64,000 bases of DNA from Flavobacteriaceae bacterium (GTDB lineage: Bacteria > Bacteroidota > Bacteroidia > Flavobacteriales > Flavobacteriaceae). The notes below the pieces were generated by a model. The model was not told where the DNA came from and did not search any database. It saw only the letters and a list, made by a program, of their open reading frames with translations. Both the position numbers and the translations under genes were made by a program. Positions within the stretch are counted from its first letter, which is position 1. Each line of letters begins with the position of its first letter. The stretch is from positions 497 through 64,496 of the forward strand of contig JANSXF010000018.1 of NCBI GenBank assembly GCA_024743095.1, read 5' to 3'. Positions 12,957-32,242 of the stretch are shown here, one piece after another.

Positions 12957-13529
12957 ATGTCATATAGCGATCAAGAATTACTTTCTCGAATGGGTAGGGA
13001 TGATGAAGTTGCCTATCATGAAATTTATAAGAAATATGCGGAAAAACTGTTTGCGTATGCATTGAACATATGTAAGCAAAGGGAAACATGCGAGGACATT
13101 GTTCAGAACGTTTTTATATCCCTTTGGGAAAAAAGAAAAAAGAATACGATTACCTACCTCAAACCATATCTTTATCAGGCTACCAAGTTTCAGGTTGTTA
13201 AAACACTAAGAAAGCACGATTTTTCACATGAAGAGTTGACTCGTCTGAATTTGGTTGACGCATCATTGAGCATCTCAAAAAAGATGGAGTTTGATGAGCT
13301 ACTTTCACTGACCAACAGCTTGGTCAATAATTTAACTCCAAGGTGCAGACAAATTTTTATTATGAGCAGGTTTGAGGATAAATCAAACTTAGAAATTTCC
13401 CAAGAGCTTGGATTGTCGATACAATCTGTAAAAAACCAAATTACTAAAGCCACAAAACGCTTAAAGGAACAAGTCTCACCTGAACAATTGGCAATCTACC
13501 AACTTCTACTTTTTGTATTTTCTCTTTAG
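12957..13529 (+). CDS. ECF-type RNA polymerase sigma-70 factor (190 aa)
   Basis: Region 2 (..CEDIVQNVFISLWEKR..) and region 4 HTH (NLEISQELGLSIQSVKNQITKATKRL). It sits next to a FecR-type gene. Confidence 0.9.
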   Translation: MSYSDQELLSRMGRDDEVAYHEIYKKYAEKLFAYALNICKQRETCEDIVQNVFISLWEKRKKNTITYLKPYLYQATKFQVVKTLRKHDFSHEELTRLNLVDASLSISKKMEFDELLSLTNSLVNNLTPRCRQIFIMSRFEDKSNLEISQELGLSIQSVKNQITKATKRLKEQVSPEQLAIYQLLLFVFSL

Positions 13530-13734: not shown

Positions 13735-14865
13735 ATGAAATACTTAAAAAACAAACAGGCCAAAAGCTTAATGGAAAAGTACCTCAATGGGAAGTGTACC
13801 GTTGAGGAGAAGAAGCTTGTTGAGAGCTATCTTGATTCATTTCAAGGAGATACAGGTCGGAATGCTGATATTGACTTTAAACTGGATATCGAGCAGCAGT
13901 TATGGGAGAAAATCAAGGCTAAGACACTCCAAACGAAAAAGACGAAAGTTTTACCGTTGGTATACAGGAATATGATGAAATATGCTGCAGTTTTTATTGG
14001 GGCAGGATTTCTATTGTTCTGGGGCTATAATGCATATAAAACCGACCAAGATATCTTGAATGCTGATAAGAAAGAGATTGTTTTACAAACGGGCCAGGAC
14101 CAAAAGTCGATAGATGAACATACGGTCGATGAGATTGTGGACGAGTCTGGAAATGTTATCGCATCGATACAAAACGGTATTCTCCAATACAGACAAAATA
14201 CTAAAAATGGTGACTTTGCCTTTAACGAAGTTATAGTGCCTTCGGGCAAAACATTTCAAATAGTCCTTGCAGATGGTACATTGGTTCATCTCAATGCAGG
14301 ATCTCATTTTCGATTTCCAGTGGGTTTTCACCCAAGTAAGGGGAGGGAGGTCTATCTATCTGGAGAGGGATATTTCGAGGTTGCAAAAGATGATTCAAGC
14401 CCATTTGTTGTCCAAGCAAACGATATGGAAGTTACGGTATTGGGGACACATTTCAATGTTAGCGCCTATTTGGGGGAGCCCCAGCATACGGTATTGGTCG
14501 AAGGGAGTGTTTCAGTGAATAACCAAAAGACGGATTCACATGAAATCATAAAACCGGGGCAAAAAGCAGTGATAAAGGGCAATGGTATGGTTGTCAATAC
14601 AGTAGATGTAAAAGATTATACCGGTTGGACACAAAATGTACTGACCTTTAGAGATGAACTGTTTCCGAACATTATTAAAAAAATTGAGCGAAGGTATAAT
14701 GTAACCATTGTGAACAACTACCCGGAGTTGGACAACGCTCGTTTCAATGGTAAGTTCAAAAACGAATCGATACTAAGTTTGATGAATACATTCAAGGAAA
14801 GTGCAAACTTTGAATACAAAATAGAAAAGGGAAAAATTGTAATCAATAAAAAAACCAGCCTATGA
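13735..14865 (+). CDS. FecR-family anti-sigma factor / transmembrane sensor (376 aa)
   Basis: N-terminal cytoplasmic segment, one TM helix (AAVFIGAGFLLFWGY), and a periplasmic FecR domain (LADGTLVHLNAGSHFRF..). It lies between the ECF sigma and an STN-domain SusC. Confidence 0.9.
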   Translation: MKYLKNKQAKSLMEKYLNGKCTVEEKKLVESYLDSFQGDTGRNADIDFKLDIEQQLWEKIKAKTLQTKKTKVLPLVYRNMMKYAAVFIGAGFLLFWGYNAYKTDQDILNADKKEIVLQTGQDQKSIDEHTVDEIVDESGNVIASIQNGILQYRQNTKNGDFAFNEVIVPSGKTFQIVLADGTLVHLNAGSHFRFPVGFHPSKGREVYLSGEGYFEVAKDDSSPFVVQANDMEVTVLGTHFNVSAYLGEPQHTVLVEGSVSVNNQKTDSHEIIKPGQKAVIKGNGMVVNTVDVKDYTGWTQNVLTFRDELFPNIIKKIERRYNVTIVNNYPELDNARFNGKFKNESILSLMNTFKESANFEYKIEKGKIVINKKTSL

Positions 14866-14968: not shown

Positions 14969-17900
14969 ATGCAAAAAAAGGATTGGTTCCCAGCAATGCT
15001 TGGGAATATTCTTAACAAGAATCGAACTATGAAGGTTTCATTTGTTCTTTTGGTATTTGCTTTGCTAAATGTTCAAGCAAATTCATTTTCGCAGAATGCC
15101 AAAATAAATTTGAACATAGAAAATGAGACTGTCCAGAGTGTTTTGGAACAAATAGAGTCTAAAAGTGATTTTAGATTTTTCTATAGAAGCGGGGAAATAG
15201 ATGGTACCAGAACCGTGACCTTCAACGTAAAGAACAAGAAAATATCATATGTTCTAAACCTGATGTTCAAGGGAAGGCCTGTCACATATTCTCTAGTTGA
15301 TAATCAAATTGTATTAAAACGAACTACTTCTAGGAAAATAGATGAAGAGGTTGCAAAAAACGTAATCAAAAGCCCTTTGCGGGAAAAGCCCTCTGATCAA
15401 TTTACCGTTAGCGGTACTGTTACAGATAACCAAGGGGTTCCCATTCCTGGGGTCAATATATTGGAGCAGGGAACTACAAATGGTGTGGCGGCGGATTTTG
15501 ATGGCAATTATTCAATTGAAGTCCCTGGGCCTGGAACGGTACTTGTTTTCAGTTCAATTGGATTTGCAGCCCAACAAATTGAGGTTGGGGAATCTTCCAC
15601 ACTTAATGTTGTTTTACAGGAAGATTCACAAGCACTCGATGAGGTGGTGATTACCGCTCTTGGAATCAAGCGGGAGAAAAAGGCATTGACCTATTCTGTC
15701 TCTGAAGTTGATGGTGATAATTTCACCAAAGCAAGGGAAATTAATGTCGGAAATGCTTTAGCGGGGAGAGTAGCTGGGGTAACAGCGTCAGCAACATCAG
15801 GTGGCCCTGCAGCATCCAGTCGTGTTATAATCAGGGGAAATGGATCGCTAAATGGAGATAATCAGCCATTATATGTTGTTAACGGAATGCCGATCACCAA
15901 TACCAACCAATCATCACCCGGTACTTATGGAGGCGTGGATAGAGGGGATGGACTCTCAAGTATCAACCCCGATGATATAGAAAGTATATCAGTTTTAAAA
16001 GGAGGTACTGCAGCTGCTCTATATGGTGCTCGCGCAGCCAATGGTGTGATTTTGATCACTACCAAATCAGGTAGCGCACAACAGGGAATAGGGGTGGAAT
16101 ATCGTACCAATGTCACATTTGAACAACCGATGAACTTTCTGGATTGGCAGTATAGATATGGTTCAGGTTCTTTGGGTGTGGCCCCTTCAAACCAAGAGGA
16201 GGCGATAGCTTTCGGACGCACCTCGTGGGGCGCGCCACTGGACGGCTCAATGGTCATACAACCAGATGGTGAATTAAGACCTTATTCACCTCAGAAAAAA
16301 AATGTCGAGAATTTTTATCAAATAGGGACGACCGTTACGAACAGTATTGCTTTTTCAGGAGGGAGTGAAGCCATTAATTTCCGGTTTGGAGCTTCCAATA
16401 TGGACAATAAATCCATAGTTCCCAATAGTAGCATAAATCGGAAGACCTTTAATTTAAGCACTAATGCAACCCTAGCAGAAAAAATTCAGTTCACGGGGAA
16501 TGCACAATACACCATTGAAGACGTTGAGAATCGGCCCTTTTTGGCTGATTTTCCCAGAAACCCCAATGCGGGAACACAATTGATAGCTACCAACATAGAT
16601 GTAAGGACCCTTTCTCCTGGGTATCTCGAAAATGGTAATGAAATGCCATGGAGCGACTATATTTATGCTACTAACCCCTACTTCGCCGTAAATAAATATA
16701 GAAATGGGGATAAACGGGAACGATTTATTGGTTCCTTTACTACAAGATACAATTTTACCGACCACCTATATGCCCGAGTCCGTTTTGGAATGGACAAGAT
16801 TAATGTGGATGGCTATCAGATAGACCCTACAGGTATTGCATTCAATGCACCAGGGAGCATGACCACTGATCAAAGTGTTCAGACCGAAACCAATATTGAA
16901 GGGGTTTTAGGTTTTAATCAAGAGTTTGGGAAATTTACGGTCAATGCCATGGCCGGGGGAAACCAAATGCGAAACACATTTGATGGCATTACTCTTTCAA
17001 GTGGGCAGTTCAACATCCCTTTTCGTTATTTTATTGGGAATGGAAGCAGCCAAAATTTTGATATCAACTACGGAAAGTTTGGAATTAATTCGCTGTTTGG
17101 ATCATTGGACCTTGATTTCAATAACTACCTCTACCTAACGCTAACAGGTAGAAACGATTGGTTTTCAACCTTGGATATTGCGGATAATAATTTGTTCTAC
17201 CCATCTGTGGGTTTGAGTTTCCTATTGACGGAGGCTTGGAAAAGCAAACCAAGTTGGCTTGATTATGCCAAAGTTAGAACTTCATGGGCTCAAGTAGGGG
17301 GGGGCGCACCAACACCCTACAATATTCTTACCACCTATTCTGCAGAATCAATTCCGCATTTAGGGCAAACATTGACCGAGGTGACCAGTGCAACCATTCC
17401 TACAAAATTGGTGCCCTATACATCAACAACTACCGAGGCAGGAATAGAACTAAGAATGTTGAACAGTAGATTGGGAATAGATTTTACGGTATATAATAGA
17501 ACCACCACCGATGATATAGTAAATGCTTCCATAGCACCTTCCAGTGGTTATGATGATGTAGCCCTTAATGCTGGTAAAATGGAAAATAAGGGTGTTGAAT
17601 TAATGGTTTCGGGAACTCCAATTACTTCTGAAAATGGTCTTACTTGGGATGCGATGGTCAATACGGCCTATAATGATAATACCGTTATCAAAATAGCAGA
17701 TGACCTTACAACATTGCAATTGCCAGGGGCAACCACAAGGACCTTGAACGGTGGAATATACCATTTTGAGGGTCAGCCTTTTGGTATGATTGCTGGAAAT
17801 CGAAAATTGACCAATGAAAGTGGGGAAATCGTGTACAACAGTTTGAGCGGACTGCCTATCGCAGGGCCGAACGAGGCGTTGGGAAGAGGTGTTCCTCCAC

Positions 17901-18415
17901 TGTCTATAGGGTTCAATAACAGTTTTACATACAAAAATTTTAATTTAAATTTTTTGCTTGATAGTAGGTGGGGCGGGAGTATTTATTCTGCCACCAGCGC
18001 TTATGGAACCGATTTCGGTTTGGATAAACGTACCGTTAGGGATAATGTGCGTGAAACAGGGGTCAGTGTCAATGGAGTTGATCAAGATGGTAATGCATAT
18101 TCGGCCACGGTCCCTGCCCAGACTTATTACAGAGGCATAGCTTACACGATTACGGAGGAATTTGTCCAAAAAGCAGACTTTATCAAGTTGCGGTCTTTTA
18201 GTCTTGGATATAACCTACCCAAATCTATGCTGTCCAGAACTCCCATAAAATCAGCCAGTATTTCATTGGTGGGGAGAAATCTTTGGTTGATTTATACAAC
18301 TACGGAAAACATTGACCCAGAATCAAATTACAGTAGTTCCAATGCACAGGGGCTCGAGAATTTTGGTTTACCAACTTCCAGAAGTTTCGGTATTGACTTT
18401 AACGTCACTTTTTAA
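14969..18415 (+). CDS. susC: SusC/RagA-family TonB-dependent outer-membrane transporter with an N-terminal STN signalling domain
   Basis: STN domain (ETVQSVLEQIESKSDFRFFY), CarboxypepD_reg-like domain (VSGTVTDNQGVPIPGVNI), plug (VVITALGIKREKK) and a long beta-barrel ending in F. The start may be the ATG at 15029 (MKVSFVLLVF signal peptide). Confidence 0.93.
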   Translation: MQKKDWFPAMLGNILNKNRTMKVSFVLLVFALLNVQANSFSQNAKINLNIENETVQSVLEQIESKSDFRFFYRSGEIDGTRTVTFNVKNKKISYVLNLMFKGRPVTYSLVDNQIVLKRTTSRKIDEEVAKNVIKSPLREKPSDQFTVSGTVTDNQGVPIPGVNILEQGTTNGVAADFDGNYSIEVPGPGTVLVFSSIGFAAQQIEVGESSTLNVVLQEDSQALDEVVITALGIKREKKALTYSVSEVDGDNFTKAREINVGNALAGRVAGVTASATSGGPAASSRVIIRGNGSLNGDNQPLYVVNGMPITNTNQSSPGTYGGVDRGDGLSSINPDDIESISVLKGGTAAALYGARAANGVILITTKSGSAQQGIGVEYRTNVTFEQPMNFLDWQYRYGSGSLGVAPSNQEEAIAFGRTSWGAPLDGSMVIQPDGELRPYSPQKKNVENFYQIGTTVTNSIAFSGGSEAINFRFGASNMDNKSIVPNSSINRKTFNLSTNATLAEKIQFTGNAQYTIEDVENRPFLADFPRNPNAGTQLIATNIDVRTLSPGYLENGNEMPWSDYIYATNPYFAVNKYRNGDKRERFIGSFTTRYNFTDHLYARVRFGMDKINVDGYQIDPTGIAFNAPGSMTTDQSVQTETNIEGVLGFNQEFGKFTVNAMAGGNQMRNTFDGITLSSGQFNIPFRYFIGNGSSQNFDINYGKFGINSLFGSLDLDFNNYLYLTLTGRNDWFSTLDIADNNLFYPSVGLSFLLTEAWKSKPSWLDYAKVRTSWAQVGGGAPTPYNILTTYSAESIPHLGQTLTEVTSATIPTKLVPYTSTTTEAGIELRMLNSRLGIDFTVYNRTTTDDIVNASIAPSSGYDDVALNAGKMENKGVELMVSGTPITSENGLTWDAMVNTAYNDNTVIKIADDLTTLQLPGATTRTLNGGIYHFEGQPFGMIAGNRKLTNESGEIVYNSLSGLPIAGPNEALGRGVPPLSIGFNNSFTYKNFNLNFLLDSRWGGSIYSATSAYGTDFGLDKRTVRDNVRETGVSVNGVDQDGNAYSATVPAQTYYRGIAYTITEEFVQKADFIKLRSFSLGYNLPKSMLSRTPIKSASISLVGRNLWLIYTTTENIDPESNYSSSNAQGLENFGLPTSRSFGIDFNVTF

Positions 18416-18449: not shown

Positions 18450-20057
18450 ATGAAACCTATAAAACATCAACACAAGGTCGCTCCTTTCTATGTAGTGATC
18501 ATGATGACATTTTTCTTAACTGGATGTGATTCTGGTTTTGAGGAACTTAACCAAAATCCAAATGCGTACACAGAACCCGATTTTCAAAGCTTGTTCACTA
18601 CGAGTTTGATCCGGACTGTAGGCACTGGTACCACGGATAGAAATCGGACGAATATGAAATACCTATCAGGAGCAATGCAATTTCATGCTACCCTTCAAAC
18701 TTTTTGGTATGGGGAGAAGGGGATTGTGCACCAACAGACAGGAAATTTTTTTGAAACCGTGTATACCTCCCATCTTAGGGAACTATCAGTGATTCTTAAT
18801 GAGACTGAAGGAATTCCTGAGTTATCGAATCAAAATGCAATAGCAAAAATTTGGAAGGTCTTTGCGCTCCATCGGGTAACGGATGCTTATGGGGATGTGC
18901 CCTATAAAGAGGCCGTAAAAGGAAATTCAGATTTGATTTTTAAACCAGTTTATGACAAACAATCCGATATCTACCCATGGATGCTTCAAGATTTGGAATC
19001 GGCCATTGGCCAGTTGGATAACTCATCAGGCTCTTTTGGTGGTGCGGACGTGATTTATGGAGGAGATGTAGCTAGTTGGAGAACATTTGGCTATTCCCTT
19101 ATGCTGCGCTTGGCCATGAGATTGACAAAGGTAGATCCAGGTATGGCCCAAGAATGGGCCCAAAAGGCAATAGAGGGAGGGGTTATGCAAAGCAATGATG
19201 ATTTGGCCAAATTGGAACATACCCCAACAAGTGGAAATACATGGAATTGGGACGGCAGAGAGCTGAAAAGGGAAAGCCTTCCCGAAGGAAATCAAGGTAT
19301 GGGACTCGTGAAAATGGGAAAGACGTTTATTGATCTTTTAAAAGAGAACAATGATCCCAGACTGCCTTTTTACGCTACTCTATGGGAAGGGAACATTAAT
19401 GCAATGCAGTTACAGGTTATTGCAGAAACCACAGTTCCCGAACTACAACAGGGGTTACCCAATGGTTATGACCCAGGGACCATAAGTGAAGCCATTCCCG
19501 GTTGGAGCAATGCCCAATTGGTGGACTATTCAGAACCCAATACGGCTACCATAGCCAATTTCTCCTCTCCATCAATAATCCTTAGTTATTCTGAGGTTGA
19601 ATTTCTATTGGCAGAAGCGGCCATTCGAGGATGGGCACCTGGAACCCCTGAAGAACACTACCAGAATGCTATCCGGGCCAATATGGAATCCTCAATGCTA
19701 TATCCCAACAATGGTATTGCCCCCATGACTATTACCGAGGATGAAATATCAGATTACTTGGCCGCCCATTCCCTTAGCGGAAGTGATGAGCAAATGATGG
19801 AACAGATTTACACACAGTTTTATCTGGCCCACTATATGTATTTGGACTTTTTTGAAGCTTGGTCAACATGGAGACGTACAGGTGTCCCAGAACTAGCACC
19901 TGTCACTTATCCATTGAATACAACGGGAGGGGTTCCTATCCGACGTTTAATGTATTCTTTTGAAGAACGTGCATTGAATCTTGAAAATGTCGAAGCGGCA
20001 ATCGCCAACCAGGGAGCAGATACGTATATCACCCGAGTATGGTGGGACGAAGAATAA
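18450..20057 (+). CDS. susD: SusD/RagB-family nutrient-binding outer-membrane lipoprotein (535 aa)
   Basis: Lipobox FFLTGC, directly downstream of susC, with a size and alpha-helical TPR-like composition typical of SusD. I set the start at ATG 18450 because the track ORF start at 18312 overlaps susC. Confidence 0.88.
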   Translation: MKPIKHQHKVAPFYVVIMMTFFLTGCDSGFEELNQNPNAYTEPDFQSLFTTSLIRTVGTGTTDRNRTNMKYLSGAMQFHATLQTFWYGEKGIVHQQTGNFFETVYTSHLRELSVILNETEGIPELSNQNAIAKIWKVFALHRVTDAYGDVPYKEAVKGNSDLIFKPVYDKQSDIYPWMLQDLESAIGQLDNSSGSFGGADVIYGGDVASWRTFGYSLMLRLAMRLTKVDPGMAQEWAQKAIEGGVMQSNDDLAKLEHTPTSGNTWNWDGRELKRESLPEGNQGMGLVKMGKTFIDLLKENNDPRLPFYATLWEGNINAMQLQVIAETTVPELQQGLPNGYDPGTISEAIPGWSNAQLVDYSEPNTATIANFSSPSIILSYSEVEFLLAEAAIRGWAPGTPEEHYQNAIRANMESSMLYPNNGIAPMTITEDEISDYLAAHSLSGSDEQMMEQIYTQFYLAHYMYLDFFEAWSTWRRTGVPELAPVTYPLNTTGGVPIRRLMYSFEERALNLENVEAAIANQGADTYITRVWWDEE

Positions 20058-20087
20058 TAGTGCTATCAAGCTTTAATAGAAAAGGAC

Positions 20088-21242
20088 ATGAAAGACAACC
20101 GTAGAAGTTTTATAAAGAAAAGTACTGCACTTGCTGCAGGGACTTCCCTGATAGGCCTAACGGCTGCGTGTAAAGAAATATCCGAAAAGGATGAGAAAGT
20201 TGCACAAAAGGAAGATGAAAAAATAGAAAGGGAATGGCCCATTAAAGAAAATAATGGAAGACCGAAAATTTGTGTAGGTACCTCGAGAAACTCGGATAGG
20301 GATACCATGAGAAAAATCAAGCAAATAGGTGTTGACTATGTTTTGATGGGCGGACCTCCCATTCCTTGGACAGTAGAAAGTCTAAGGGAAATAATGGACG
20401 CTTTTAAAGAAGAAGGGCTTACTGTTATAAATATGATGATAGGGGGGCATCCCAATACAATTTATGGCAGGGAAGGAAGGGATGATGAGATTGAAAAAAT
20501 AAAACAATCCCTAATAGCGGCAGGTGAAGCGGATCTTCCGGTAGTTGAGTATAATTTCTATGCCCACAGATTGATGGAAGGATACTATGAAAAGTTAGGT
20601 AGGGGAGGTGCAGGCCACACTGCATTTGATTACGAACCAGTAAAAGACCTTCCAGCAGATGCAGAAAGAGGGGAGCATCGTGCAGAGGATTTGTGGAAAA
20701 ACCTCACTTATTTTCTTAATGAAGTGATTCCGGTTGCAGAGAAAGCAGGGGTTCGAATGGCTTTACATCCTAATGACCCTCCTATCCCTGTAAGTCATGG
20801 TTCGGACCAAATTATGGCTACATTGGAAGATTGGAAAAGACTAATAGAACTAGTGGACAGTCCATCAAATGGTATCACATTTGATTGCGGAGTCACCCGT
20901 GAATTAGGGGAAGACCCACTGGAAGTTCTTCAATATTTCGGATCTAGGGATCGCATAAACCATATGCATTACCGGAATGTGATCTCCGATAAACCTTATG
21001 TGAAATACAGCGAGGTATTCTTGGATGAGGGCCAAGTAAATATGTATGCCGTTATGCGGGATATAATAGGATTGGGATATACCCACGGTATTTACCCGGA
21101 GCATCCCAGAGCTTTAGATTATGACAAAGAACACCCAGAAGGGATAAGAAATCAATATCCCGGAGGTGGTGGATATACGGGTATGACCTACAATATAGGT
21201 TTTACCAGAGCGATGGAATTGGCTGTATTGTCATCAAAATGA
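20088..21242 (+). CDS. UxuA-family (mannonate dehydratase-like, xylose-isomerase-like TIM barrel) protein with a twin-arginine leader; divergent paralog 1
   Basis: N-terminus MKDNRRSFIKKSTALAAGTSLIGLTAAC (Tat motif RRxFxK, h-region, possible lipobox Cys). The body aligns by eye with E. coli UxuA, for example FLNEVIPVAEKAGVRMALHPNDPP versus [24 protein letters not shown], and EGQVNMYAVM versus NGDVDMYEVV. Confidence 0.8.
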   Translation: MKDNRRSFIKKSTALAAGTSLIGLTAACKEISEKDEKVAQKEDEKIEREWPIKENNGRPKICVGTSRNSDRDTMRKIKQIGVDYVLMGGPPIPWTVESLREIMDAFKEEGLTVINMMIGGHPNTIYGREGRDDEIEKIKQSLIAAGEADLPVVEYNFYAHRLMEGYYEKLGRGGAGHTAFDYEPVKDLPADAERGEHRAEDLWKNLTYFLNEVIPVAEKAGVRMALHPNDPPIPVSHGSDQIMATLEDWKRLIELVDSPSNGITFDCGVTRELGEDPLEVLQYFGSRDRINHMHYRNVISDKPYVKYSEVFLDEGQVNMYAVMRDIIGLGYTHGIYPEHPRALDYDKEHPEGIRNQYPGGGGYTGMTYNIGFTRAMELAVLSSK

Positions 21243-21276
21243 TTAAGAAGCAGCAACACACAAAAATCACAAAGCG

Positions 21277-22401
21277 ATGAAAGACAATAGAAGAAGTTTT
21301 ATAAAAAAAAGTGCGACAATGGCCACGGCATTCTCAATGGGTGGGGTAGGCATTTCTATGGCAGGTACGTCTAAGAAAAGCAACAAATCAGCTTATATCA
21401 GGGATGCAGGAATGAAGTTTGCTTTAGCGATGAGACCAGATTCCCCACGTGTACCGTATGCCAAACAAATGGATGTTATGCACGCTGTATCCGGTATTGT
21501 CAGAGACAAGGATTTAAAACCTTGGGAACCCAAGGCCATACTCGCGACAAAGGAAGCATGGGACAAACTTGGCATAAAATGGACGGTTGTGGAAGGCCCT
21601 CCATCTTTGGGGTCTGAGACCAAACTGGCCTTAAAGGGAAGGGATGAAGAAATAGACAACTTTATAACGTTCATGAAAAACCTTAAACAGTATGGAAATG
21701 TCGATACTATCTGTTACAACTGGATGCCGGTAATAAGTTGGGCCAGAACTGATAAAAATACTAAAGCTAGGGGCGGGGCAATCGTGTCGTCTTTTGATTA
21801 CGAAGATATAAAGGATGCTGAGTATACCGAATATGGAGAGGTTACAAAAGATGAACTATGGAAAAATCTTGAATACTTTCTTAAAGCAGTTGTGCCGGAA
21901 GCAGAAAAGATAGGAATGAACCTGTCCCTTCATCCGGACGATCCACAAGTACACAGTATTAAAGGCATATCAAGAATCATGAATACGGTAGAAAACTTTG
22001 ATAGAATGTTAGAGCTGTACCCCAGTAAATATAGTGGATTGACTATGTGCCAAGGTAATTTTTCACTAATGGGGGTCAATATTCCAGACTTGATTAGGAG
22101 ATGGGGCAAAAAAGGAGCGATCAATTTCGTTCACTTTAGAAATATTCAAGAACTCAGTGGACAACTTCCAAGTACAAAGTTCACAGAAACCTTCCATGAT
22201 GAAGGTGATATTGATATGTATGAAGCTATGAAAGCATATTATGATATAGGGTTTAAGGGAACTATTAGACCAGATCACGTAGCAACACTTTATGGTGAAA
22301 CTAACGAACATCAAGGATATATGACATTGGGCGCATTATATGCGATGGGATATATACGCGGCCTTGCAGAATCAGTTTCTAAGAATACAATGAATGGTTA
22401 A
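21277..22401 (+). CDS. UxuA-family mannonate dehydratase-like protein with a twin-arginine leader; paralog 2
   Basis: N-terminus MKDNRRSFIKKSATMATAFSMGGVGISMAG. UxuA signatures CYNWMPVISWARTD (E. coli CYNFMPVLDWTRTD), LHPDDPQ, HDEGDIDMYEAM and IRPDH. Confidence 0.85.
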   Translation: MKDNRRSFIKKSATMATAFSMGGVGISMAGTSKKSNKSAYIRDAGMKFALAMRPDSPRVPYAKQMDVMHAVSGIVRDKDLKPWEPKAILATKEAWDKLGIKWTVVEGPPSLGSETKLALKGRDEEIDNFITFMKNLKQYGNVDTICYNWMPVISWARTDKNTKARGGAIVSSFDYEDIKDAEYTEYGEVTKDELWKNLEYFLKAVVPEAEKIGMNLSLHPDDPQVHSIKGISRIMNTVENFDRMLELYPSKYSGLTMCQGNFSLMGVNIPDLIRRWGKKGAINFVHFRNIQELSGQLPSTKFTETFHDEGDIDMYEAMKAYYDIGFKGTIRPDHVATLYGETNEHQGYMTLGALYAMGYIRGLAESVSKNTMNG

Positions 22402-22414
22402 TTAAGATATAGAG

Positions 22415-23581
22415 ATGAAAGAAAATCGTAGAGACTTTATAAAGAAAAGCGCCTCAATGGCAGCAATGGCTTCTATTGGAGGAGTAATGTATTCTTGTTC
22501 TGATAGTCAGGTCAAAAAAACAATTACTCAAACTGCAAAACTGAATGAACTTTCAAAAGATGCAGGTATAGAAATGAGTAATGCTTTCTTCTGGGGAATG
22601 AAAGATCATGCTTATTTAATAGAATTGGCAAAACAGATGGGTGCCTATGGCGCTGTTGCGGGGATTGACAAACGACTCTTTAAAGATTCAGAGGGAAAGC
22701 CTTGGGCATATGAATCCATTAAAAATGTGGTGGATGCATGGAAATCCGTAGGTCTTAACTACAATGTGGTCGAAGGGCCTCCCTCGCTGTATAATAAAAC
22801 AAAACTAGGTCTTGAAGGGAGGGATGAAGAAATTGAAAACTTTATCACTTTCATGAGTAATCTTAAAAGAGCAGGTGTCGATGTCATTTGTTACAATTGG
22901 ATGCCGGTAATAAGTTGGGCCAGAACCGATATGGCAAAACCTGGCAGAGGAGGGGCATTGATGACAGCATTCGATTATGACGAGGTAAAGGATAAACCGA
23001 TAACTGAATATGGGGAGTTTACTAAAGAGGCGCTTTGGGATAACCTAGAGTATTTCTTAAAGGCAGTAGTGCCCGAAGCTGAACAAATTGGAATGAAGTT
23101 GGCATTACATCCTGATGACCCCCAGGTTCATAGTATACAGGGTATTCCTAGGATAATGAATACTATAGAAAACTTTGACCGAATGTTGGAAATTGTTCCC
23201 AGCGATTTTAATGGTATTACAATGTGTCAAGGCAATTTTTCTTTAATGGGTACAGATATTCCCAACTTAATTCGACGTTGGGGTAAGGCGGGTAAAATTC
23301 ATTTTGTTCATTTTAGAAACATTAAGGAACTCAGTGGGCAGCTTCCAAGTACCAAATTCACAGAAACTTTTCATGATGAAGGCGATATAGATATGTATGA
23401 GGCTATGAGGGCTTATTATGATATTGGCTTTAAAGGAGCAATGCGTCCAGATCATGTCCCAACAATGGCAGGTGAAGAAAATATAAGACCAGGTTATATG
23501 GATTTAGGGAATCTTTATGCCATTGGGTACATGCGAGGATTAGCTGAATCTGTCAGTAAGGAGAATAGAGAAATTACTTAG
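22415..23581 (+). CDS. UxuA-family mannonate dehydratase-like protein with a twin-arginine leader; paralog 3
   Basis: N-terminus MKENRRDFIKKSASMAAMASIGGVMYSC. It has the same UxuA signatures as paralog 2 and shares long identical runs with it (ELSGQLPSTKFTETFHDEGDIDMYEAM). Confidence 0.85.
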   Translation: MKENRRDFIKKSASMAAMASIGGVMYSCSDSQVKKTITQTAKLNELSKDAGIEMSNAFFWGMKDHAYLIELAKQMGAYGAVAGIDKRLFKDSEGKPWAYESIKNVVDAWKSVGLNYNVVEGPPSLYNKTKLGLEGRDEEIENFITFMSNLKRAGVDVICYNWMPVISWARTDMAKPGRGGALMTAFDYDEVKDKPITEYGEFTKEALWDNLEYFLKAVVPEAEQIGMKLALHPDDPQVHSIQGIPRIMNTIENFDRMLEIVPSDFNGITMCQGNFSLMGTDIPNLIRRWGKAGKIHFVHFRNIKELSGQLPSTKFTETFHDEGDIDMYEAMRAYYDIGFKGAMRPDHVPTMAGEENIRPGYMDLGNLYAIGYMRGLAESVSKENREIT

Positions 23582-23694
23582 ACCATACTGATAAATGATA
23601 ATCAAAAGATTAAAACATCGGAATAAAAACAAAATGAAGGAGTCCTATCCTTATTTCGGGAATGTTTTAGTATAAAACCAATAAGAACCATAAA

Positions 23695-25194
23695 ATGAAA
23701 TCAGTATTAAAAGAAATAATAGCAAAGAGCAAGAAGGAAGAAAGCACCTATAAATTAACTAGAGAGGCGGAAATCAATAGCCCAAAAACAACAGATGCCA
23801 GGCGCGATTTTTTGAAGAAAACGGCACTTGGCGGAATTGCGATGACCGGAATGGTGGGTCTTGGCATAGAGGAGACGGTGGCCCAGACGACATCAAAGGT
23901 GGGCAGGGCCTCAGCCCCTTCCGAGCTTAAGATCACCGATATGCGATATGCATTGACCAATGTAATGGGGGGGACTGCTATCATCAAAATAGAAACCAAT
24001 CAAGGTATCTATGGATTGGGAGAAGTTAGGGATGCGGCCGATGTGCGCTATGCGCTATTCCTTAAAAGTAGAATATTGGGAAAAAACCCTTGCAATGTTG
24101 AAAAAATATTCAAGAGCATAAAACAATTTGGGGGCCCGGCAAGACAAGCTGGAGGTGTATGCGCTGTAGAGATGGCATTATGGGACCTTTGTGGAAAAGC
24201 ATATAATGTTCCAGCTTGGCAATTATTGGGAGGAAGATATAGGGACAAAGTCAGGTTGTATGCCGACACGCCCCAGGCCGAAACAGCTGCCGAGCAAAAG
24301 AGACTGATCGACTATCGGATGAACGACCAGGGCTACACCTGGTTGAAGATGGATGTGGCCATCTCCTCCCTGCCCCCGAATTCGGGAACCTTGGTAAACG
24401 ATAAATTCTGGAGAAATGAACAAGGTCGTTTGGCACAATGGGGCGACCGCAGAAATTACATGTCTTATGGGAACACAATGCACCCCTTTACACAGATCCA
24501 GATTACCGAGAAAGGGCTCGATATGTTGGCCCAACGTGTTGCGGATGTAAGGGAAATGGTAGGTTGGGAAATCCCAATCTCTACCGATCATTATGGACAC
24601 TTTGACCTGAACAATGGAATCCGACTTGGAAAAGCATTGGACAAGTATAGATTGGCATGGTTGGAGGATATGGTGCCATGGCAGTACACTGAGCAGTGGA
24701 GAACTATCTCCGAAGCACTTGAAACACCGACCACAACAGGCGAGGATATCCATTTCCTGGAAAATTTCAAGCCTATCATACACAATAGGTCGGTGGATAT
24801 TGTTCATCCAGACTTAGCCTCATCAGGAGGTCTGTTGGAAACAAAAAGGATAGGGGATTATGCAGAGGAATTTGGAATGGGAATGGCCATGCACCAAGCT
24901 GGCACACCTGTATCTTTTATGGCCAATGTACATTGTGCGGCCGCAACGCAGAATTTCTTGGCTTTGGAGCACCACTCTGTAGATGTGCCATGGTGGGAAG
25001 ACTTGGTAACTACGGTCGGTGGTTTCAAGATGATCGATAAAGGATTTGCCACCGTGCCCCTTACCGCACCAGGATTAGGAATTGAGTTGAACGAGGAAGT
25101 GGTCAAGGGTCATTTGCATCCAAGTGACAAGAGCTTTTTTAAATCAACCAAGGAGTGGGATGAACTAAGGTCCCACGATAGAAGTTATAGTTAA
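23695..25194 (+). CDS. Enolase-superfamily protein (mandelate racemase / acid-sugar dehydratase type) with a twin-arginine leader (499 aa)
   Basis: A Tat motif DARRDFLKKTALGGIAMTGMVGLG follows a 35-aa n-region. The capping domain is LKITDMRY..IIKIETNQGIYGLGEV and AVEMALWDLCGKAYNVPAWQLLGG. The barrel shows acidic metal-ligand contexts (LWLKMD-like WLKMD, AWLED, GED..). Confidence 0.8.
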   Translation: MKSVLKEIIAKSKKEESTYKLTREAEINSPKTTDARRDFLKKTALGGIAMTGMVGLGIEETVAQTTSKVGRASAPSELKITDMRYALTNVMGGTAIIKIETNQGIYGLGEVRDAADVRYALFLKSRILGKNPCNVEKIFKSIKQFGGPARQAGGVCAVEMALWDLCGKAYNVPAWQLLGGRYRDKVRLYADTPQAETAAEQKRLIDYRMNDQGYTWLKMDVAISSLPPNSGTLVNDKFWRNEQGRLAQWGDRRNYMSYGNTMHPFTQIQITEKGLDMLAQRVADVREMVGWEIPISTDHYGHFDLNNGIRLGKALDKYRLAWLEDMVPWQYTEQWRTISEALETPTTTGEDIHFLENFKPIIHNRSVDIVHPDLASSGGLLETKRIGDYAEEFGMGMAMHQAGTPVSFMANVHCAAATQNFLALEHHSVDVPWWEDLVTTVGGFKMIDKGFATVPLTAPGLGIELNEEVVKGHLHPSDKSFFKSTKEWDELRSHDRSYS

Positions 25195-25222
25195 TTAATA
25201 GTAGTGGCTATTGTTTAGTTAA

Positions 25223-25292: not shown

Positions 25293-26234
25293 ATGAAAAA
25301 ATCTAGCATGTTTTTGGTGTTATTTATTTGTTTAATGGGCCAATCGGGCATAAAGGCCCAAAAAGTGGGTTCATCGCCAGAATATATAAAGGCACTTACA
25401 CAAGAATGGGAGGGAGAACGTTTCAATGACGGAAGGCCCAAGGTTTCCGATGCACTATTGGAGCGCTTAAAAAAGATCAGGATCGAGGAGGCCTGGGGCT
25501 ATCTACGGGGCAAAGGGTATAACAACCAATATGAAGGTGGTTGGAAAATCATTCACCCGGAGGGAGTAATGACCGGTCGTATTGTCACGGCGCAATATAT
25601 GCCGCTCAGGCCAGATCTCGACCAATATATAAAGTTGCAGGGCGCCAAAGAAAAAAGGGATACCATAGGAGGGAGCAATTCCTGGCCTATTGAAATTTTG
25701 GTCAAAGGAGATGTTTATGTAGCGGATGGTTACGGAAGAATCATCGATGGAACACTGATCGGTTCCAATTTAGGGAATGCTATATATGCAAATTCCCAAA
25801 ATGGAGTTGTTTTTGACGGTGGCGTCAGGGATTTGGGAGGATTACTGGAAATTGAAGGGTTCAATGGATGGTACCGTGACGAAGATCCTTCTTACTTGCA
25901 AGAGCAAATGCTGACATCCATTAATGCCCCCATTCGCATAGGAAGGGCAACCGTACTGCCAGGTGATGTAGTTTTGGCCAATAGGCACGGAACTATTTTT
26001 ATACCATCCCACCATGTTGCGGAACTGGTAATTTCTTCGGAAGTAGTTGCTTTGAGGGATGAATTTGGGTTTCAGAGGTTACGGGAAAAAACGTATACCG
26101 CCGGTCAAATAGATACTAAATGGACTTCAGATATAAAATCGGATTTTATAGGCTGGTTGAAGGATTACCCGGATAGTAAACTACCCATGACCAGAAAAGA
26201 ACTGGACGCTCATTTAAAAAAGAAAGATTACTAA
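25293..26234 (+). CDS. RraA-family (RraA / HMG-CHA aldolase fold) protein with a Sec signal peptide
   Basis: Signal MKKSSMFLVLFICLMGQSGIKAQ. The core VKGDVYVADGYGRIIDGTLIGSNLGNAIYANSQNGVVFDGGVRD..VLPGDVVLANRHGTIFIP matches the RraA-like GDV..D..G..G..RD pattern. I set the start at ATG 25293. Confidence 0.65.
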   Translation: MKKSSMFLVLFICLMGQSGIKAQKVGSSPEYIKALTQEWEGERFNDGRPKVSDALLERLKKIRIEEAWGYLRGKGYNNQYEGGWKIIHPEGVMTGRIVTAQYMPLRPDLDQYIKLQGAKEKRDTIGGSNSWPIEILVKGDVYVADGYGRIIDGTLIGSNLGNAIYANSQNGVVFDGGVRDLGGLLEIEGFNGWYRDEDPSYLQEQMLTSINAPIRIGRATVLPGDVVLANRHGTIFIPSHHVAELVISSEVVALRDEFGFQRLREKTYTAGQIDTKWTSDIKSDFIGWLKDYPDSKLPMTRKELDAHLKKKDY

Positions 26235-26243: not shown

Positions 26244-26687
26244 ATGAAGAAGTTGTTTTTACCCATCCTTCTGGTCAGTATTTCTGTTATGTCCTGTACC
26301 ACTTCAACAAAAGGTCAAAAACTAAATAAGGATATGGTACTGGATATTCTGGAACAATTTGATGGGGCCATTATAACAAGGGATGCTGAGGTTTTGTCAT
26401 CACTAGCATCTGAAGACTTGACTTACGGACATTCCAGTGGTAAAATACAGGACAAAGAAGAATTTGTCAATGATGTGGTGAACGGGCCCTTTCAATTTTT
26501 GTCCATTACCAATAGGGACCAACGAATCAAGGTTTCGGGCAATGTGGCGATCGTACGGCACATTTTATTGGCCGATGCGATGGACGATGGCATGCCCGCC
26601 CAAGTTCGGATCGGGGTGGTCATGGTCTTCCAACTTGGGGAGAGTGGTCGTATATCGCTACTTGCCCGTCAGGCCTTTAAGATATGA
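26244..26687 (+). CDS. SnoaL/NTF2-like (DUF4440-type) small lipoprotein (147 aa)
   Basis: Lipobox VMSC. Size and pattern (..AIITRDAEVLSSLASEDLTYGHSSG..) fit NTF2-fold proteins. Function is unknown. Confidence 0.55.
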   Translation: MKKLFLPILLVSISVMSCTTSTKGQKLNKDMVLDILEQFDGAIITRDAEVLSSLASEDLTYGHSSGKIQDKEEFVNDVVNGPFQFLSITNRDQRIKVSGNVAIVRHILLADAMDDGMPAQVRIGVVMVFQLGESGRISLLARQAFKI

Positions 26688-26712: not shown

Positions 26713-28983
26713 ATGATGGGGACCAATTATTGCCGTAATGGCGATCAGGGTGGCCGGACCCAGGTACTTCTCCTGTTCCTGACCATTTCCCATGTGTTTT
26801 TGGTAGGTTGTACCGGCAAGGACAGGGTTTACCGGGACAATGGGGGGGACCATTTGGTGACGGGCAAGGATTGGCCTGTTTATGGTGGGAGTAGAAAATC
26901 AAAAAGATACTCCCCGTTGACAGGGATCGGCAAGGAAAATGTAAGTGACCTGGAGGTGGCCTGGGTATATGATGCAAGGGACCGGGTCGAGGGGTCCGGA
27001 GGTTCAAAACCCAAGGCCATCCAGTGCCAGCCGATCGTGAAGGATGGGATTTTGTACGGTACAACACCGGAATTGCAATTGTTCGCCCTTCGTGCGGCAA
27101 CGGGGGAGGAGCTCTGGCGGTTCAAGCCGGTCCAAGACCCCCGTAAATACAATATTAGTGCAAGTAGGGGAGTCACCTATTGGCAGAATGGCGATGATTG
27201 TCGAATTCTTTACACATCGGGCACATACCTATATGCAGTTAACGCAAAAACAGGTGAGCCCATCCCTAGTTTTGGGGAGTCGGGCAGGGTGGATCTCCAC
27301 GAAGGCCTGGACGATGGACTGGATATGGATATGGCGCATGTCGGCATCAATGCGACAAGTCCGGGAATTGTCTATAGGGATATATTCATCATCGGTTCCA
27401 GCGTTTCGGAGAAAGGGGATGCCCCGCCGGGAAACATCCGGGCGTTCGATACCAGGACGGGGAAGTTAAAATGGGTCTTCCATACCGTACCGCACCCGGG
27501 CGAGGAAGGATATGGTACCTGGCCCAAGGATGCCTATAAGGAGCATGGGGGCGTCAATAGCTGGGGCGGCATGTCATTGGATGTGGAAAGGGGCATGGTA
27601 TTTTTTGGCACCGGATCACCGTCCTCGGATTTCTATGGGGGCAACCGTAAAGGAAGAAACCTGTTTGCCAATTGCGTGGTGGCCCTGGATGCCGAAACGG
27701 GGGAGCTGGAATGGTATTTCCAGACCATACGTCACGACCTATGGGACCGGGATTTTCCTTGTGCCCCAAACCTCGCTACCATTACTGTAGATGGGAAGGA
27801 GAGGGACGTTGTGGTACAGGCTGGTAAAGACGGATATGTATATGTGCTGGATAGGGACAATGGCAAGTCAATTTTTCCAATTGAGGAGCATAAGGTCCCT
27901 ACAAAGAATGGTCTTCCGGGAGAACAGCCCTACCCTACTCAAATTTTTCCCACAAAACCTGAACCGTTGTCACATCAATTTTTTCAGGAAGACATGATAA
28001 CGGACTTGACACCTGAATCTTGGGCTTATGTTAAAGGAATAGCTGATAAATATGAAATTGGAAACAAGTATGGTCTACCCAGTGAAAAGGGTACGTTGAT
28101 GTTCGGATATAGCGGGGGTGCGGAATGGGGTGGCAATGCCACGGACCTGGATGGGATTTTCTATCAAAATTCCAACAACGACCCTTGGATATTGGAGATG
28201 GAGGATGTGGAATCCAGAAACAAAAAGATGCAAAATGTACAGACTGGGGCCGATATCTATAGGATAAATTGTGCCATGTGTCATGGCGATGACAAAAAGG
28301 GAACAACAGAATTTCCAAGCTTGGTCAATATTGGGGATAGATTTTCTGCCCCAAATATCATATCGATTCTTGAGTCTGGTGTGGGCCGGATGCCAGCCTT
28401 TCAACACCTTTCAGAAAGCAACAGAAAAGCCGTTACGGCTTTTCTGCTGGACTTACCATCTGGAATGCATCCTAAAATGGCAAGTAATTCTAATAAGCCT
28501 GAAACAGATGAAAGGGACGATGTGCCAACATTTGGCTATGAGCCTCGATATGTTCCGAAGGTTTGGAAAAAATTGGTGGATCAAAATGGCTACCCGGGGA
28601 TCAAACCACCGTGGGGGACATTAAATGCTATTGACCTCAATACTGGGGAGTATCTCTGGAAAGTTCCTTTGGGTGAATATCCTGAGTTAACAAAAAAAGG
28701 TGTGCCCATAACTGGAACAGAAAGTTATGGAGGGCCTATTGTAACTGCTAGTGGGCTTCTGTTTATTGCAGGAACAAAGGATGAAAAAATCAGGGCTTTT
28801 GATAAAAAAACGGGAAAGGTACTATGGGAGTACCAATTGCCGGCCGGTGGCTTTGCCACACCTATTACCTATGAAGTGGATAACAAGCAATATGTGGTCA
28901 TTGCTGCAGGTGGGGGAAGAGGACAAAAATCAGGAGGATATTATATAGCGTTTACTTTACAGGAAAGCACAAAGAATAATTAA
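26713..28983 (+). CDS. PQQ-dependent dehydrogenase-like beta-propeller lipoprotein with an inserted mono-haem cytochrome c module (756 aa)
   Basis: Lipobox FLVGC. Propeller repeats include DGILYGTTPE.., YLYAVNAKTGEPI, IRAFDTRTGKLKWVF, VALDAETGELEWYF, GYVYVLDRDNGKSIF and IRAFDKKTGKVLWEY. CAMCH (CxxCH) lies at 28270-28284 and is followed by GVGRMPAF. More propeller sequence follows the haem module. I set the start at ATG 26713. Confidence 0.8.
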   Translation: MMGTNYCRNGDQGGRTQVLLLFLTISHVFLVGCTGKDRVYRDNGGDHLVTGKDWPVYGGSRKSKRYSPLTGIGKENVSDLEVAWVYDARDRVEGSGGSKPKAIQCQPIVKDGILYGTTPELQLFALRAATGEELWRFKPVQDPRKYNISASRGVTYWQNGDDCRILYTSGTYLYAVNAKTGEPIPSFGESGRVDLHEGLDDGLDMDMAHVGINATSPGIVYRDIFIIGSSVSEKGDAPPGNIRAFDTRTGKLKWVFHTVPHPGEEGYGTWPKDAYKEHGGVNSWGGMSLDVERGMVFFGTGSPSSDFYGGNRKGRNLFANCVVALDAETGELEWYFQTIRHDLWDRDFPCAPNLATITVDGKERDVVVQAGKDGYVYVLDRDNGKSIFPIEEHKVPTKNGLPGEQPYPTQIFPTKPEPLSHQFFQEDMITDLTPESWAYVKGIADKYEIGNKYGLPSEKGTLMFGYSGGAEWGGNATDLDGIFYQNSNNDPWILEMEDVESRNKKMQNVQTGADIYRINCAMCHGDDKKGTTEFPSLVNIGDRFSAPNIISILESGVGRMPAFQHLSESNRKAVTAFLLDLPSGMHPKMASNSNKPETDERDDVPTFGYEPRYVPKVWKKLVDQNGYPGIKPPWGTLNAIDLNTGEYLWKVPLGEYPELTKKGVPITGTESYGGPIVTASGLLFIAGTKDEKIRAFDKKTGKVLWEYQLPAGGFATPITYEVDNKQYVVIAAGGGRGQKSGGYYIAFTLQESTKNN

Positions 28984-32206: not shown

Positions 32207-32209
32207 ACA

Positions 32210-32236
32210 AAAAGCCTTCGTTTTTAGAAGGCTTTT
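32210..32236. terminator. Bidirectional rho-independent terminator between eda and the convergent hydrolase gene
   Basis: aaaagccttc-gttttta-gaaggctttt, with an A run before and a T run after the stem, read directly. Confidence 0.75.
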
Positions 32237-32242
32237 TTGTTT

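Follow-up and report, generated by a model that had tools for sequence, protein, structure and literature searches.

Tandem UxuA-family paralogs with twin-arginine leaders in a SusC/SusD locus: candidate periplasmic sugar-acid dehydratases of Bacteroidota

Canonical UxuA, whose structure has been solved from Escherichia coli (4EAC), Streptococcus suis (3BAN), and Enterococcus faecalis (1TZ9), is a leaderless, cytoplasmic dehydratase encoded in hexuronate operons. Characterised UxuA acts on an aldonate, and the dehydratases of the enolase superfamily require a carboxylate substrate. To our knowledge, the sugar-acid dehydratases of both families are regarded as belonging to central sugar-acid catabolism in the cytoplasm, and all characterised enolase-superfamily acid-sugar dehydratases are cytoplasmic. 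An oxidative, non-phosphorylative route for mannose has been assembled from the Thermoplasma acidophilum enzymes AldT, ManD, and the aldolase for 2-keto-3-deoxygluconate (KDG) (PMC6901390). In the AL/BT 3-keto-glycoside route of Bacteroides, oxidation in the periplasm is followed by elimination, the proteins carry Sec, lipoprotein, and twin-arginine translocation (Tat) signals, and the activity of a related cluster is stimulated by Mn2+/Co2+ (bioRxiv 10.1101/2024.03.25.586180). A stretch of 64,000 nucleotides from a Flavobacteriaceae bacterium (assembly GCA_024743095.1, contig JANSXF010000018.1, positions 497 to 64,496; hereafter the window) carries three tandem genes, P1, P2, and P3, which encode UxuA-like proteins. 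In contrast to canonical UxuA, these proteins bear Tat leaders and are encoded in a SusC/SusD locus together with periplasmic oxidoreductases. It is proposed, with a probability of about 0.58, that P1–P3 are metal-dependent sugar-acid dehydratases of the UxuA family that Tat has relocated to the periplasm, within an extracytoplasmic oxidative sugar pathway free of glycoside hydrolases (GHs). They are part of a larger conserved locus for an export-dependent pathway.

By Pfam family and by fold, P1–P3 belong to UxuA. An earlier reading of the window, made from its sequence only, had described three consecutive open reading frames (ORFs) with UxuA bodies. Its coordinates are exact, and the three forward-strand frames lie head to tail, with gaps of 34 nt (P1/P2) and 13 nt (P2/P3). 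All match Pfam UxuA (PF03786, gathering score 23.7 bits), with 145.9 bits for P1 (E = 1.7e-42), 256.1 for P2 (5.3e-76), and 293.1 for P3 (2.9e-87). P2 and P3, judged by eye to be two-thirds to three-quarters identical, share 65.4% of their residues, and the 27-residue run reported as common to both, ELSGQLPSTKFTETFHDEGDIDMYEAM, is indeed identical. P1 is much more divergent, as had been noted (32% identical to P2 and 35% to P3), yet it is not simply a diverged copy, belonging to a separate deep subfamily with altered active-site positions. The UxuA signatures ascribed to all three proteins are less evenly distributed than was claimed. LHP[ND]DP occurs in P1, P2, and P3, whereas CYNWMPVISWARTD and GD[IV][DN]MY are confined to P2 and P3, where GDIDMY is among the forms found; P1 reads VEYNFYAHRLMEGY and GQVNMY at these sites. 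The signature given as [IY]PDH/EH was misread for P2 and P3, in which the PDH form is RPDH, while P1 has YPEH.

AlphaFold2 models, which cover P1 and P3 of the three paralogs, have mean predicted local distance difference test (pLDDT) values of 81 and 83.6, respectively, and are confident from about residue 50 onward. The best fold match in the Protein Data Bank (PDB) is 3BAN for both, with E = 4.8e-27 and template modelling (TM) scores of 0.75/0.83 for P3 and E = 1.2e-24 and 0.75/0.82 for P1. The UxuA structures 3BAN, 1TZ9, and 4EAC head the lists (E 1e-27 to 1e-20), and the next tier consists of xylose-isomerase-like barrels with E of about 1e-10 to 1e-12. By sequence, the PDB relatives of P1–P3 are the three solved UxuA proteins only. 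The likeness to canonical UxuA thus comprises the Pfam family, the TIM barrel (TM 0.70–0.84), and some 26–37% sequence identity.

The likeness extends to the active site. In an alignment of 122 diverse UxuA-family members, columns conserved at 80–100% were taken as family-invariant. In HPxDP these comprise the His and the second Asp, in xCxG the Cys, and in PDH the His; the HxR motif and a Glu complete the set. P2 and P3 retain all of them, and P1–P3 share the invariant His, Asp, His, Arg, Glu, and His, together with an aligned Tyr. This Tyr, within PGY, is aligned in all three proteins, and their [DE]H motif supplies a His that lines up with that of RPDH in S. suis UxuA. We take these two residues to be the counterparts of the catalytic His311 and Tyr325 of the S. 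suis enzyme, and the invariant residues are presumably metal ligands or acid/base groups in P1–P3.

Each of the three proteins starts with MK[DE]NRR[SD]FIKKS, followed by a weakly hydrophobic stretch rich in Ala, Gly, Ser, and Thr. P1 and P2 share the same opening 12 residues (MKDNRRSFIKKS), and P3 begins with MKENRRDFIKKS. Their Tat motif reads N-R-R-[SD]-F-I-K-K, against a consensus of (S/T)-R-R-x-F-L-K. When the leaders alone were scored with NCBIfam TIGR01409 (cut-off 16.7 bits), P1, P2, and P3 reached 17.6, 18.8, and 22.4 bits, respectively, and the enolase-type gene of the same operon reached 20.7 bits, all above the cut-off. The hydrophobicity of the h-region, expressed as the maximum 12-residue Kyte–Doolittle mean, is 1.35–1.53 in P1–P3 and 1.35–1.69 across the four Tat leaders, as opposed to 2.23–2.68 in the operon's Sec or lipoprotein leaders (SusD-like, RraA-like, DUF4440, and the pyrroloquinoline quinone (PQQ) enzyme). 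The pattern RRxF[LIVM][KR] occurs four times among the 91 window ORFs of at least 100 residues (25,245 residues in total). Because these occurrences are confined to the N-termini of P1, P2, P3, and the enolase-type dehydratase, the leader pattern is not a product of chance.

The leaders are conserved well beyond the window. A twin-arginine (RR) leader is present in 109 of the 120 best P3 homologues and in 118 of the 120 best P1 homologues retrieved by database search, from Muricauda, Sinomicrobium, Zunongwangia/Autumnicola, Adhaeribacter, Olivibacter, Parapedobacter, and many uncultured Bacteroidota. The P3 homologues without it are mostly fragments or proteins called from an internal Met within the h-region, and one has the motif farther in, behind a longer called N-terminus. 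In related loci, RRxF[LI] is found in 14 of 15 P1-type, 40 of 40 P2-type, and 53 of 55 P3-type ORFs. Absence of the leader from close orthologues had been named as the sign of a start-codon artefact; such an artefact was rejected, as the leader is conserved and the leaderless homologues look like truncated start calls. It is accordingly very improbable that P1–P3 are ordinary cytoplasmic mannonate dehydratases with a miscalled start or a chance RR motif. The public annotation of P1 and P3 homologues, uniformly and simply "mannonate dehydratase", is the one point in favor of this explanation. It is opposed by the presence of the leader in about 95% of 240 homologues across genera, by the TIGR01409 scores and the restriction of the motif to four N-termini, and by the lack of uxaC and uxuB in the window. 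Moreover, canonical sequences begin at the barrel (MxxxFRWYG), whereas the barrels of the P1 and P3 models start only at about residue 50–60. The region ahead of the barrel is modelled with a pLDDT below 50 (residues 1–46 of P1 and 17–48 of P3), such that the leaders are largely of low confidence apart from a short predicted N-terminal helix.

On these leader features, export of P1–P3 through the Tat system is highly probable. With Tat export, metal can be loaded in the cytoplasm before the protein is transported. No tat genes were recognized among the scanned window ORFs of at least 150 residues, with about eight ORFs beyond position 52,300 lying outside the scan. Candidate cleavage sites follow LTAA in P1, MYS in P3, and SMA in P2, the next residue being Cys, Cys, and Gly, respectively. 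The Cys reported after the leader in two of the three proteins is thus found at position 28 of P1 (..LTAAC) and of P3 (..VMYSC), and P2 has none. A loose lipobox-like pattern ending in Cys is present in 52 of 120 P1 homologues, and some P1-type proteins are probably Tat-dependent lipoproteins.

Over the 12 leader codons shared by P1 and P2 (20088–20123 and 21277–21312), the DNA differs at three synonymous sites, which indicates that the peptide sequence of the leader is being preserved. The first 12 residues of the two proteins are identical even though the mature proteins are 32% identical and come from different deep clades. Either a strong constraint by the Tat consensus of Bacteroidota or an exchange of leaders between paralogs may account for this identity.

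An exhaustive search of 1.84 billion cluster representatives returned 3,718 UxuA-like relatives, many of them short (320–350 residues), leaderless, and uncharacterised. In a neighbor-joining tree, whose deep nodes are unreliable but with which the pairwise identities agree, a tight clade made up entirely of Tat-tagged members unites the P2/P3-type proteins, and P1-type proteins form a second all-Tat clade elsewhere. The canonical UxuA clade is separate and leaderless, with the exception of P0361, a probable false positive of the crude Tat test. The suggested test of whether Tat-bearing members form a distinct clade thus gives two for the P1 and P2/P3 types, both separate from leaderless canonical UxuA. 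P1 is 38–42% identical to the Tat-bearing proteins P0301 and P0377 and 30–35% identical to P2 and P3, and P3 is 48% identical to the leaderless P0244. A recent tandem triplication was rejected, as P1 is nearer to P0301 and P0377 than to P2 and P3, and P3 is nearer to P0244 than to P1. Distant genomes also carry the P1, P2, and P3 orthogroups side by side, for example a Flavobacteriaceae metagenome-assembled genome (MAG; L006), Leeuwenhoekiella (L065), Ginsengibacter (L029), and Adhaeribacter (L011, with four copies). This recurrence argues for long-standing functional specialisation of proteins that would descend from two old lineages, P1 and P2/P3. The view of P1–P3 as exported, functionally diversified TIM-barrel enzymes of the UxuA family is supported in silico by the Tat scores, the conservation of the leaders, the active-site residues, the modelled folds, and the phylogeny.

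Tat-tagged UxuA-like lineages are also present in Acidobacteriota, within Bryobacteraceae and Terriglobia (the P0246 cluster). In the 692-residue protein P0241, from a Bryobacteraceae MAG, the search matched two separate stretches, and this protein may harbor two UxuA-like domains behind a single RR leader.

P1–P3 occupy the middle of an apparent single operon with intergenic gaps of 9–113 nt, the features of which are collected in Table 1.

Table 1. Features of the P1–P3 locus, with positions given in the window
Feature	Position	Strand	Remarks
ECF-type (extracytoplasmic function) sigma factor, locus regulator	12957..13529	+	Pfam Sigma70_r2, Sigma70_r4_2
FecR-type anti-sigma factor	13735..14865	+	Pfam FecR, FecR_C
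SusC/RagA TonB-dependent outer-membrane transporter with STN	14969..18415	+	Pfam STN, CarboxypepD_reg, Plug; TIGR04056 660 bits (cut-off 368)
SusD-like lipoprotein	18450..20057	+	Likely ATG start 18450, longest ORF from 18312; Pfam SusD-like_2, SusD-like
P1, Tat-leader UxuA-like protein, divergent P1 subfamily, 384 aa	20088..21242	+	Possible Tat-dependent lipoprotein (Cys28)
P1 twin-arginine leader, aa 1–27	20088..20168	+	MKDNRRSFIKKSTALAAGTSLIGLTAA, ends before Cys28
P2, Tat-leader UxuA-like protein, P2 orthogroup of P2/P3 clade, 374 aa	21277..22401	+	
P2 twin-arginine leader, about aa 1–29	21277..21363	+	MKDNRRSFIKKSATMATAFSMGGVGISMA, then G; possible cleavage after ..ISMA
P3, Tat-leader UxuA-like protein, P3 orthogroup, 388 aa	22415..23581	+	Possible lipobox Cys28
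P3 twin-arginine leader, aa 1–27	22415..22495	+	MKENRRDFIKKSASMAAMASIGGVMYS, then C
Enolase-superfamily acid-sugar dehydratase (ManD/GalD-like), Tat motif	23695..25194	+	Pfam MR_MLE_N, MR_MLE_C
Sec-exported RraA-like protein, HMG/CHA-type class II pyruvate aldolase/decarboxylase family	25293..26234	+	Pfam RraA-like
DUF4440/SnoaL-like lipoprotein	26244..26687	+	Pfam DUF4440; leader MKKLFLPILLVSISVMSC
PQQ-dependent dehydrogenase with cytochrome c domain, probably lipoprotein	26713..28983	+	Likely ATG start 26713; Pfam PQQ, Cytochrome_CBB3
Inner-membrane bile acid:sodium symporter (BASS) family transporter	29000..30121	+	Pfam SBF; NCBIfam bass, PanS models
PfkB-family sugar kinase, probably KDG kinase, no signal peptide	30223..31284	+	Pfam PfkB
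KDPG/KHG aldolase (Eda)	31355..32035	+	Pfam Aldolase PF01081
Terminator-like hairpin closing operon	32209..32237	+	11-bp stem then T-run; strongest + strand candidate

The SusD-like protein starts with a leader, MKPIKHQHKVAPFYVVIMMTFFLTGC, that resembles a Sec/SPII signal. The enolase-type gene, the fourth with a Tat motif, is matched best by NCBIfam models for galactonate/mannonate dehydratases. Its motif is preceded by an extension of about 35 residues (23695–23805; MKSVLKEIIAKSKKEESTYKLTREAEINSPKTTDA-RRDFLKK), and the form MKxxLxxIIxKxKxEE...RRDFLKK is conserved in enolase-type homologues of other genera; so long and conserved an n-region is unusual, and a chaperone or proofreading factor might bind there. 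The RraA-like protein has a hydrophobic leader of the Sec type (MKKSSMFLVLFICLMG), aligns to the aldolase 3NOJ, and retains the GVRD motif. The PQQ enzyme scores 422 bits with TIGR03074 (glucose/quinate/shikimate family), and its homologues start with lipoprotein leaders. No other comparable terminator-like hairpin was found in the scan between SusC and Eda, and a scan for sigma-70 promoters was uninformative (38 sites found, 43 expected). The adjacent susC-like and susD-like pair is a hallmark of a polysaccharide utilization locus (PUL), but the other hallmark, a co-located gene for a GH, polysaccharide lyase (PL), or carbohydrate esterase (CE), is missing: Pfam recognized none at 12957–32035, and none lies inside the operon in the related loci L001, L002, and L004. 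Of the hexuronate context, the window has a kdgK-like gene and eda, with neither uxaC nor uxuB.

The base composition of the operon is uneven. G+C reaches 51–59% at 29200–32200 (the second half of the BASS gene, PfkB, and Eda), compared with 35–45% in the UxuA-like genes and about 42% in the window, and a second, smaller rise (52%) lies in the PQQ gene at 26800–28000. The downstream part of the operon could be mosaic or horizontally acquired. Ahead of the operon, at 9959–12048, a 292-residue ORF with no Pfam match lies upstream of a Mur-ligase-like gene (10837–12048) and shares one base with it, and the pair is downstream of a MotA/ExbB-type gene.

The gene content suggests the following pathway. 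SusC/SusD would import a sugar or small glycan, sensed by the sigma/anti-sigma pair through the STN domain of SusC. In the periplasm, the PQQ/cytochrome c dehydrogenase would oxidize the sugar to a sugar acid and pass the electrons to the respiratory chain; in some relatives, a glucose–methanol–choline (GMC) flavoprotein with a hitch-hiker subunit would perform this oxidation instead. The UxuA-type and enolase-type enzymes are predicted to fold and load their metal in the cytoplasm and to be exported by Tat thereafter. The use of Tat for the metal-dependent dehydratases and of Sec for the other exported proteins would fit such metal acquisition. Dehydration across C2–C3 in the periplasm would then yield 2-keto-3-deoxy sugar acids, with the paralogs perhaps taking different stereoisomers. 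The RraA-like aldolase would cleave part of these products in the periplasm, and the remainder would enter through the BASS transporter to be finished by KDG kinase and 2-keto-3-deoxy-6-phosphogluconate (KDPG) aldolase. As the C2 and C3 stereocentres would be destroyed before import, many aldonates could be funnelled to a few keto-deoxy acids, for which one importer may be enough. Carboxylate substrates of the aldonate type are favored because of the co-exported enolase-type enzyme, the KDG kinase, and the KDPG aldolase.

The locus was surveyed with one genome per species, which gave 350 stretches that encode a relative; partners were counted in the best 79 of these 350 loci. Seventy-eight of the 79 are labelled Bacteroidota (Flavobacteriia, Sphingobacteriia, Cytophagia, and Chitinophagia), and the exception is a MAG labelled Janthinobacterium lividum that is probably mis-binned. 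An RraA-like gene is the most frequent partner (50 of 79 loci), followed by an enolase-type gene (39), the PQQ enzyme (32), SusC/SusD (30–31), and a BASS or major facilitator superfamily (MFS) transporter (29). A sigma/FecR pair precedes SusC in 17–18 loci, DUF4440 is found in seven, and PfkB and Eda occur in six and two related loci, respectively. Where enough downstream sequence is available (71 loci), the RraA-like gene is immediately 3′ of the last UxuA-like gene in 36. The transporters of related loci are of the BASS, MFS, or Gate-domain type. Independent gene calls and Pfam labels confirmed the pattern of partners in Adhaeribacter, Olivibacter, and Autumnicola, and in Olivibacter a GMC flavoprotein with a Gluconate_2-dh3 (hitch-hiker) subunit takes the place of the PQQ enzyme. 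In Maribacter sp. MAR_2009_72, a SusC/SusD pair shows induction by both arabinose and arabinogalactan, and a "mannonate dehydratase", possibly of the Tat type, lies five locus tags downstream (PMC11036162).

Two further features of related loci concern partners of the UxuA-like genes. In MAGs of Daejeonella, Sphingobacterium, and Pedobacter (L013, L014, L017, and L018), a lone P3-type UxuA-like gene and an RraA-like gene are preceded by five to seven tandem genes for enolase-superfamily dehydratases, several of them Tat-tagged, a striking increase in the number of acid-sugar dehydratases with predicted export. The second feature is a Sec-exported protein of about 325 residues (326 residues in L001/L011, at 11723–12703), which recurs in 14 other related loci (e.g., L038, L054, L063, L070, and L072), in many cases immediately upstream of the PQQ dehydrogenase. 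It has no sequence match in Pfam, NCBIfam, or the PDB and no homologue in the window. The window carries DUF4440 next to the PQQ gene instead, and the two seldom both adjoin the PQQ gene in one locus.

Several observations weigh against P1–P3 being periplasmic sugar-acid dehydratases, and the first group of these concerns the proteins. All three score below the cut-off of the NCBIfam equivalog TIGR00695 (199.55 bits), P1 with 91.7, P2 with 156.8, and P3, just short of it, with 197.1 bits; the label "mannonate dehydratase" is therefore not justified for any of them. For the subfamily model NF003027 (cut-off 191 bits), P2 (233) and P3 (266) are above and P1 (122) is below. P1 departs from the family at the Cys column, which aligns with Asp266 (followed by Cys267), and at PDH, which is PEH, and it also lacks the Glu of the VVEG/IES strand. 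Canonical UxuA carries an N-terminal RW[YF]G motif in strand 1 and, behind the fourth strand, an insertion of 30–70 residues. P1–P3 have neither, and ICVGTSR, FALAMRP, and AFFWGMK stand in place of the motif. Alternatively, the proteins may be exported but catalyze another reaction of the xylose-isomerase-like superfamily, acting on keto-sugars or inosose-like compounds by epimerisation, isomerisation, or hydration. Such a reaction is possible mainly for P1, with its altered active-site positions, and it would agree with the subthreshold equivalog scores of all three, with weak NCBIfam matches to IolE and sugar epimerases, and with the passing of the AP_endonuc_2 gathering score (31 bits) by P1 (60 bits) and P3 (34 bits). 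It is nevertheless judged quite improbable, as the UxuA-invariant residues are retained, including the aligned His and Tyr, the E-values of the UxuA fold matches are ahead by over 10 orders of magnitude, and the enolase-type dehydratase, KDG kinase, and KDPG aldolase fit the production of keto-deoxy acids.

The second group of adverse points concerns the locus. The SusC/SusD pair is accompanied by no GH that would free monosaccharides, although oligosaccharides are the usual cargo of SusC/SusD systems. The window also has no recognisable lactonase. In about 10 of the 79 loci, the UxuA-like gene has no partner gene of the window nearby; among these, L007 and L030 offer no substrate clues, with unrelated or mobile genes only. 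In the closest cultured relative, Muricauda sp. MAR_2010_75 (L084), the P3 orthologue is 86% identical and lies outside any SusC/SusD operon. Its neighbors there are a divergently oriented GMC and Gluconate_2-dh3 pair, ThuA, Gfo/Idh/MocA, FG-GAP/ASPIC genes, and a further TIM barrel of the xylose-isomerase-like type. Such surroundings resemble 3-keto-sugar pathways and give the impression of a separate island for sugar oxidation in the periplasm. Across the loci, extracytoplasmic sugar oxidation is the constant theme.

A glycan importer with no GH, PL, or CE, and relatives that set the gene beside GMC and hitch-hiker oxidoreductases, ThuA, and Gfo/Idh/MocA, would suit an oxidative peeling of glycans. 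In this mechanism, the dehydrogenase would turn the reducing end of an imported oligosaccharide into an aldonate or a ring carbon into a ketone, and abstraction of an alpha-proton by the UxuA-type and enolase-type enzymes would then eliminate the glycosidic substituent instead of water with no need for a GH, releasing a keto-deoxy acid and a shortened chain. The missing 30–70-residue insertion could open the active site for such substrates, several paralogs stand side by side in distant lineages (the triad in L006, L011, L029, and L065), and periplasmic oxidation–elimination by a TIM-barrel lyase of the same clan has been described for Bacteroides AL1–AL3 (bioRxiv 10.1101/2024.03.25.586180). 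Peeling is nonetheless considered unlikely. UxuA is far nearer to these proteins than the 3-keto-glycoside lyases/hydratases, of which 8RO4 ranks about 49th for the P3 model (E of about 1e-8 compared with 1e-27 for UxuA), no DUF1080 or Gfo/Idh/MocA partner is present in the window, and the SusC/SusD pair would also be accounted for by TonB-dependent import of small sugars or acids. A specific form of GH-free degradation from the reducing end is rated as distinctly doubtful. Here the PQQ enzyme would make the aldonate, and the dehydratases would take the C2 proton and expel the substituent directly at O3 or, once dehydration has occurred, at O4. The products of each cycle would be a 2-keto-3-deoxy acid and a chain shorter by one residue, and the paralogs would serve different linkages or sugars.

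Dehydration of free sugar acids in the periplasm is thus the preferred assignment for P1–P3. No prior description of a Tat-tagged UxuA, of a periplasmic sugar-acid dehydratase, or of this type of locus was found in the open-access literature searched, subscription-only literature lying outside the search. The enzyme family is known; its putative relocation, the subfamily features, and the pathway context are not known from earlier work. If the proteins are exported, part of an Entner–Doudoroff-type chemistry would take place outside the cytoplasm. Export would also change the reading of PULs free of carbohydrate-active enzymes (CAZymes) in surveys of marine and soil carbon cycling, the reading of genes that are blanket-annotated as "mannonate dehydratase", and the view of how Tat is used to deliver metal-loaded enzymes. 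With this locus, a second non-hydrolytic way of breaking down glycans or sugars gains a concrete, testable candidate. If peeling were true, it would represent a new mechanism of glycan breakdown, an enzymatic counterpart of alkaline "peeling" and a second non-Koshland route.

Among the known systems beyond canonical UxuA, the mannose route of T. acidophilum shares with the proposed pathway the oxidation of an aldose at C1, the dehydration of the aldonate, and the aldolase cleavage of a keto-deoxy acid; its ManD is of the UxuA type. That route is cytoplasmic and NAD-dependent, whereas the locus described here encodes a PQQ/cytochrome c enzyme, dehydratases with Tat leaders, and an aldolase-like protein with a Sec leader, on account of which its steps are placed outside the cytoplasm. 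The AL1–AL3 systems of Bacteroides resemble the pathway predicted for the locus in combining oxidation and elimination in the periplasm and in the use of export signals that include Tat. They differ in that the Tat substrate is a Gfo/Idh/MocA oxidoreductase, the lyase is not UxuA-like, and DUF1080 is required. Neither Gfo/Idh/MocA nor DUF1080 genes are present in the window, in which the enolase-type enzyme, KDG kinase, and aldolase point to carboxylate substrates.

The enolase-superfamily ManD/GalD dehydratases, to which the fourth Tat-tagged gene belongs, catalyze the same overall type of reaction as UxuA. The window member is set apart from them by its Tat motif, by the extension of about 35 residues, and by scores below all equivalog cut-offs. 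Finally, MncA of Synechocystis reportedly uses Tat export as a means of loading the correct metal before export. By analogy alone, the same principle would explain why the Mn/Fe- and Mg-dependent dehydratases of this locus carry Tat leaders and why Sec leaders are found on the RraA-like protein, DUF4440, and the PQQ enzyme.

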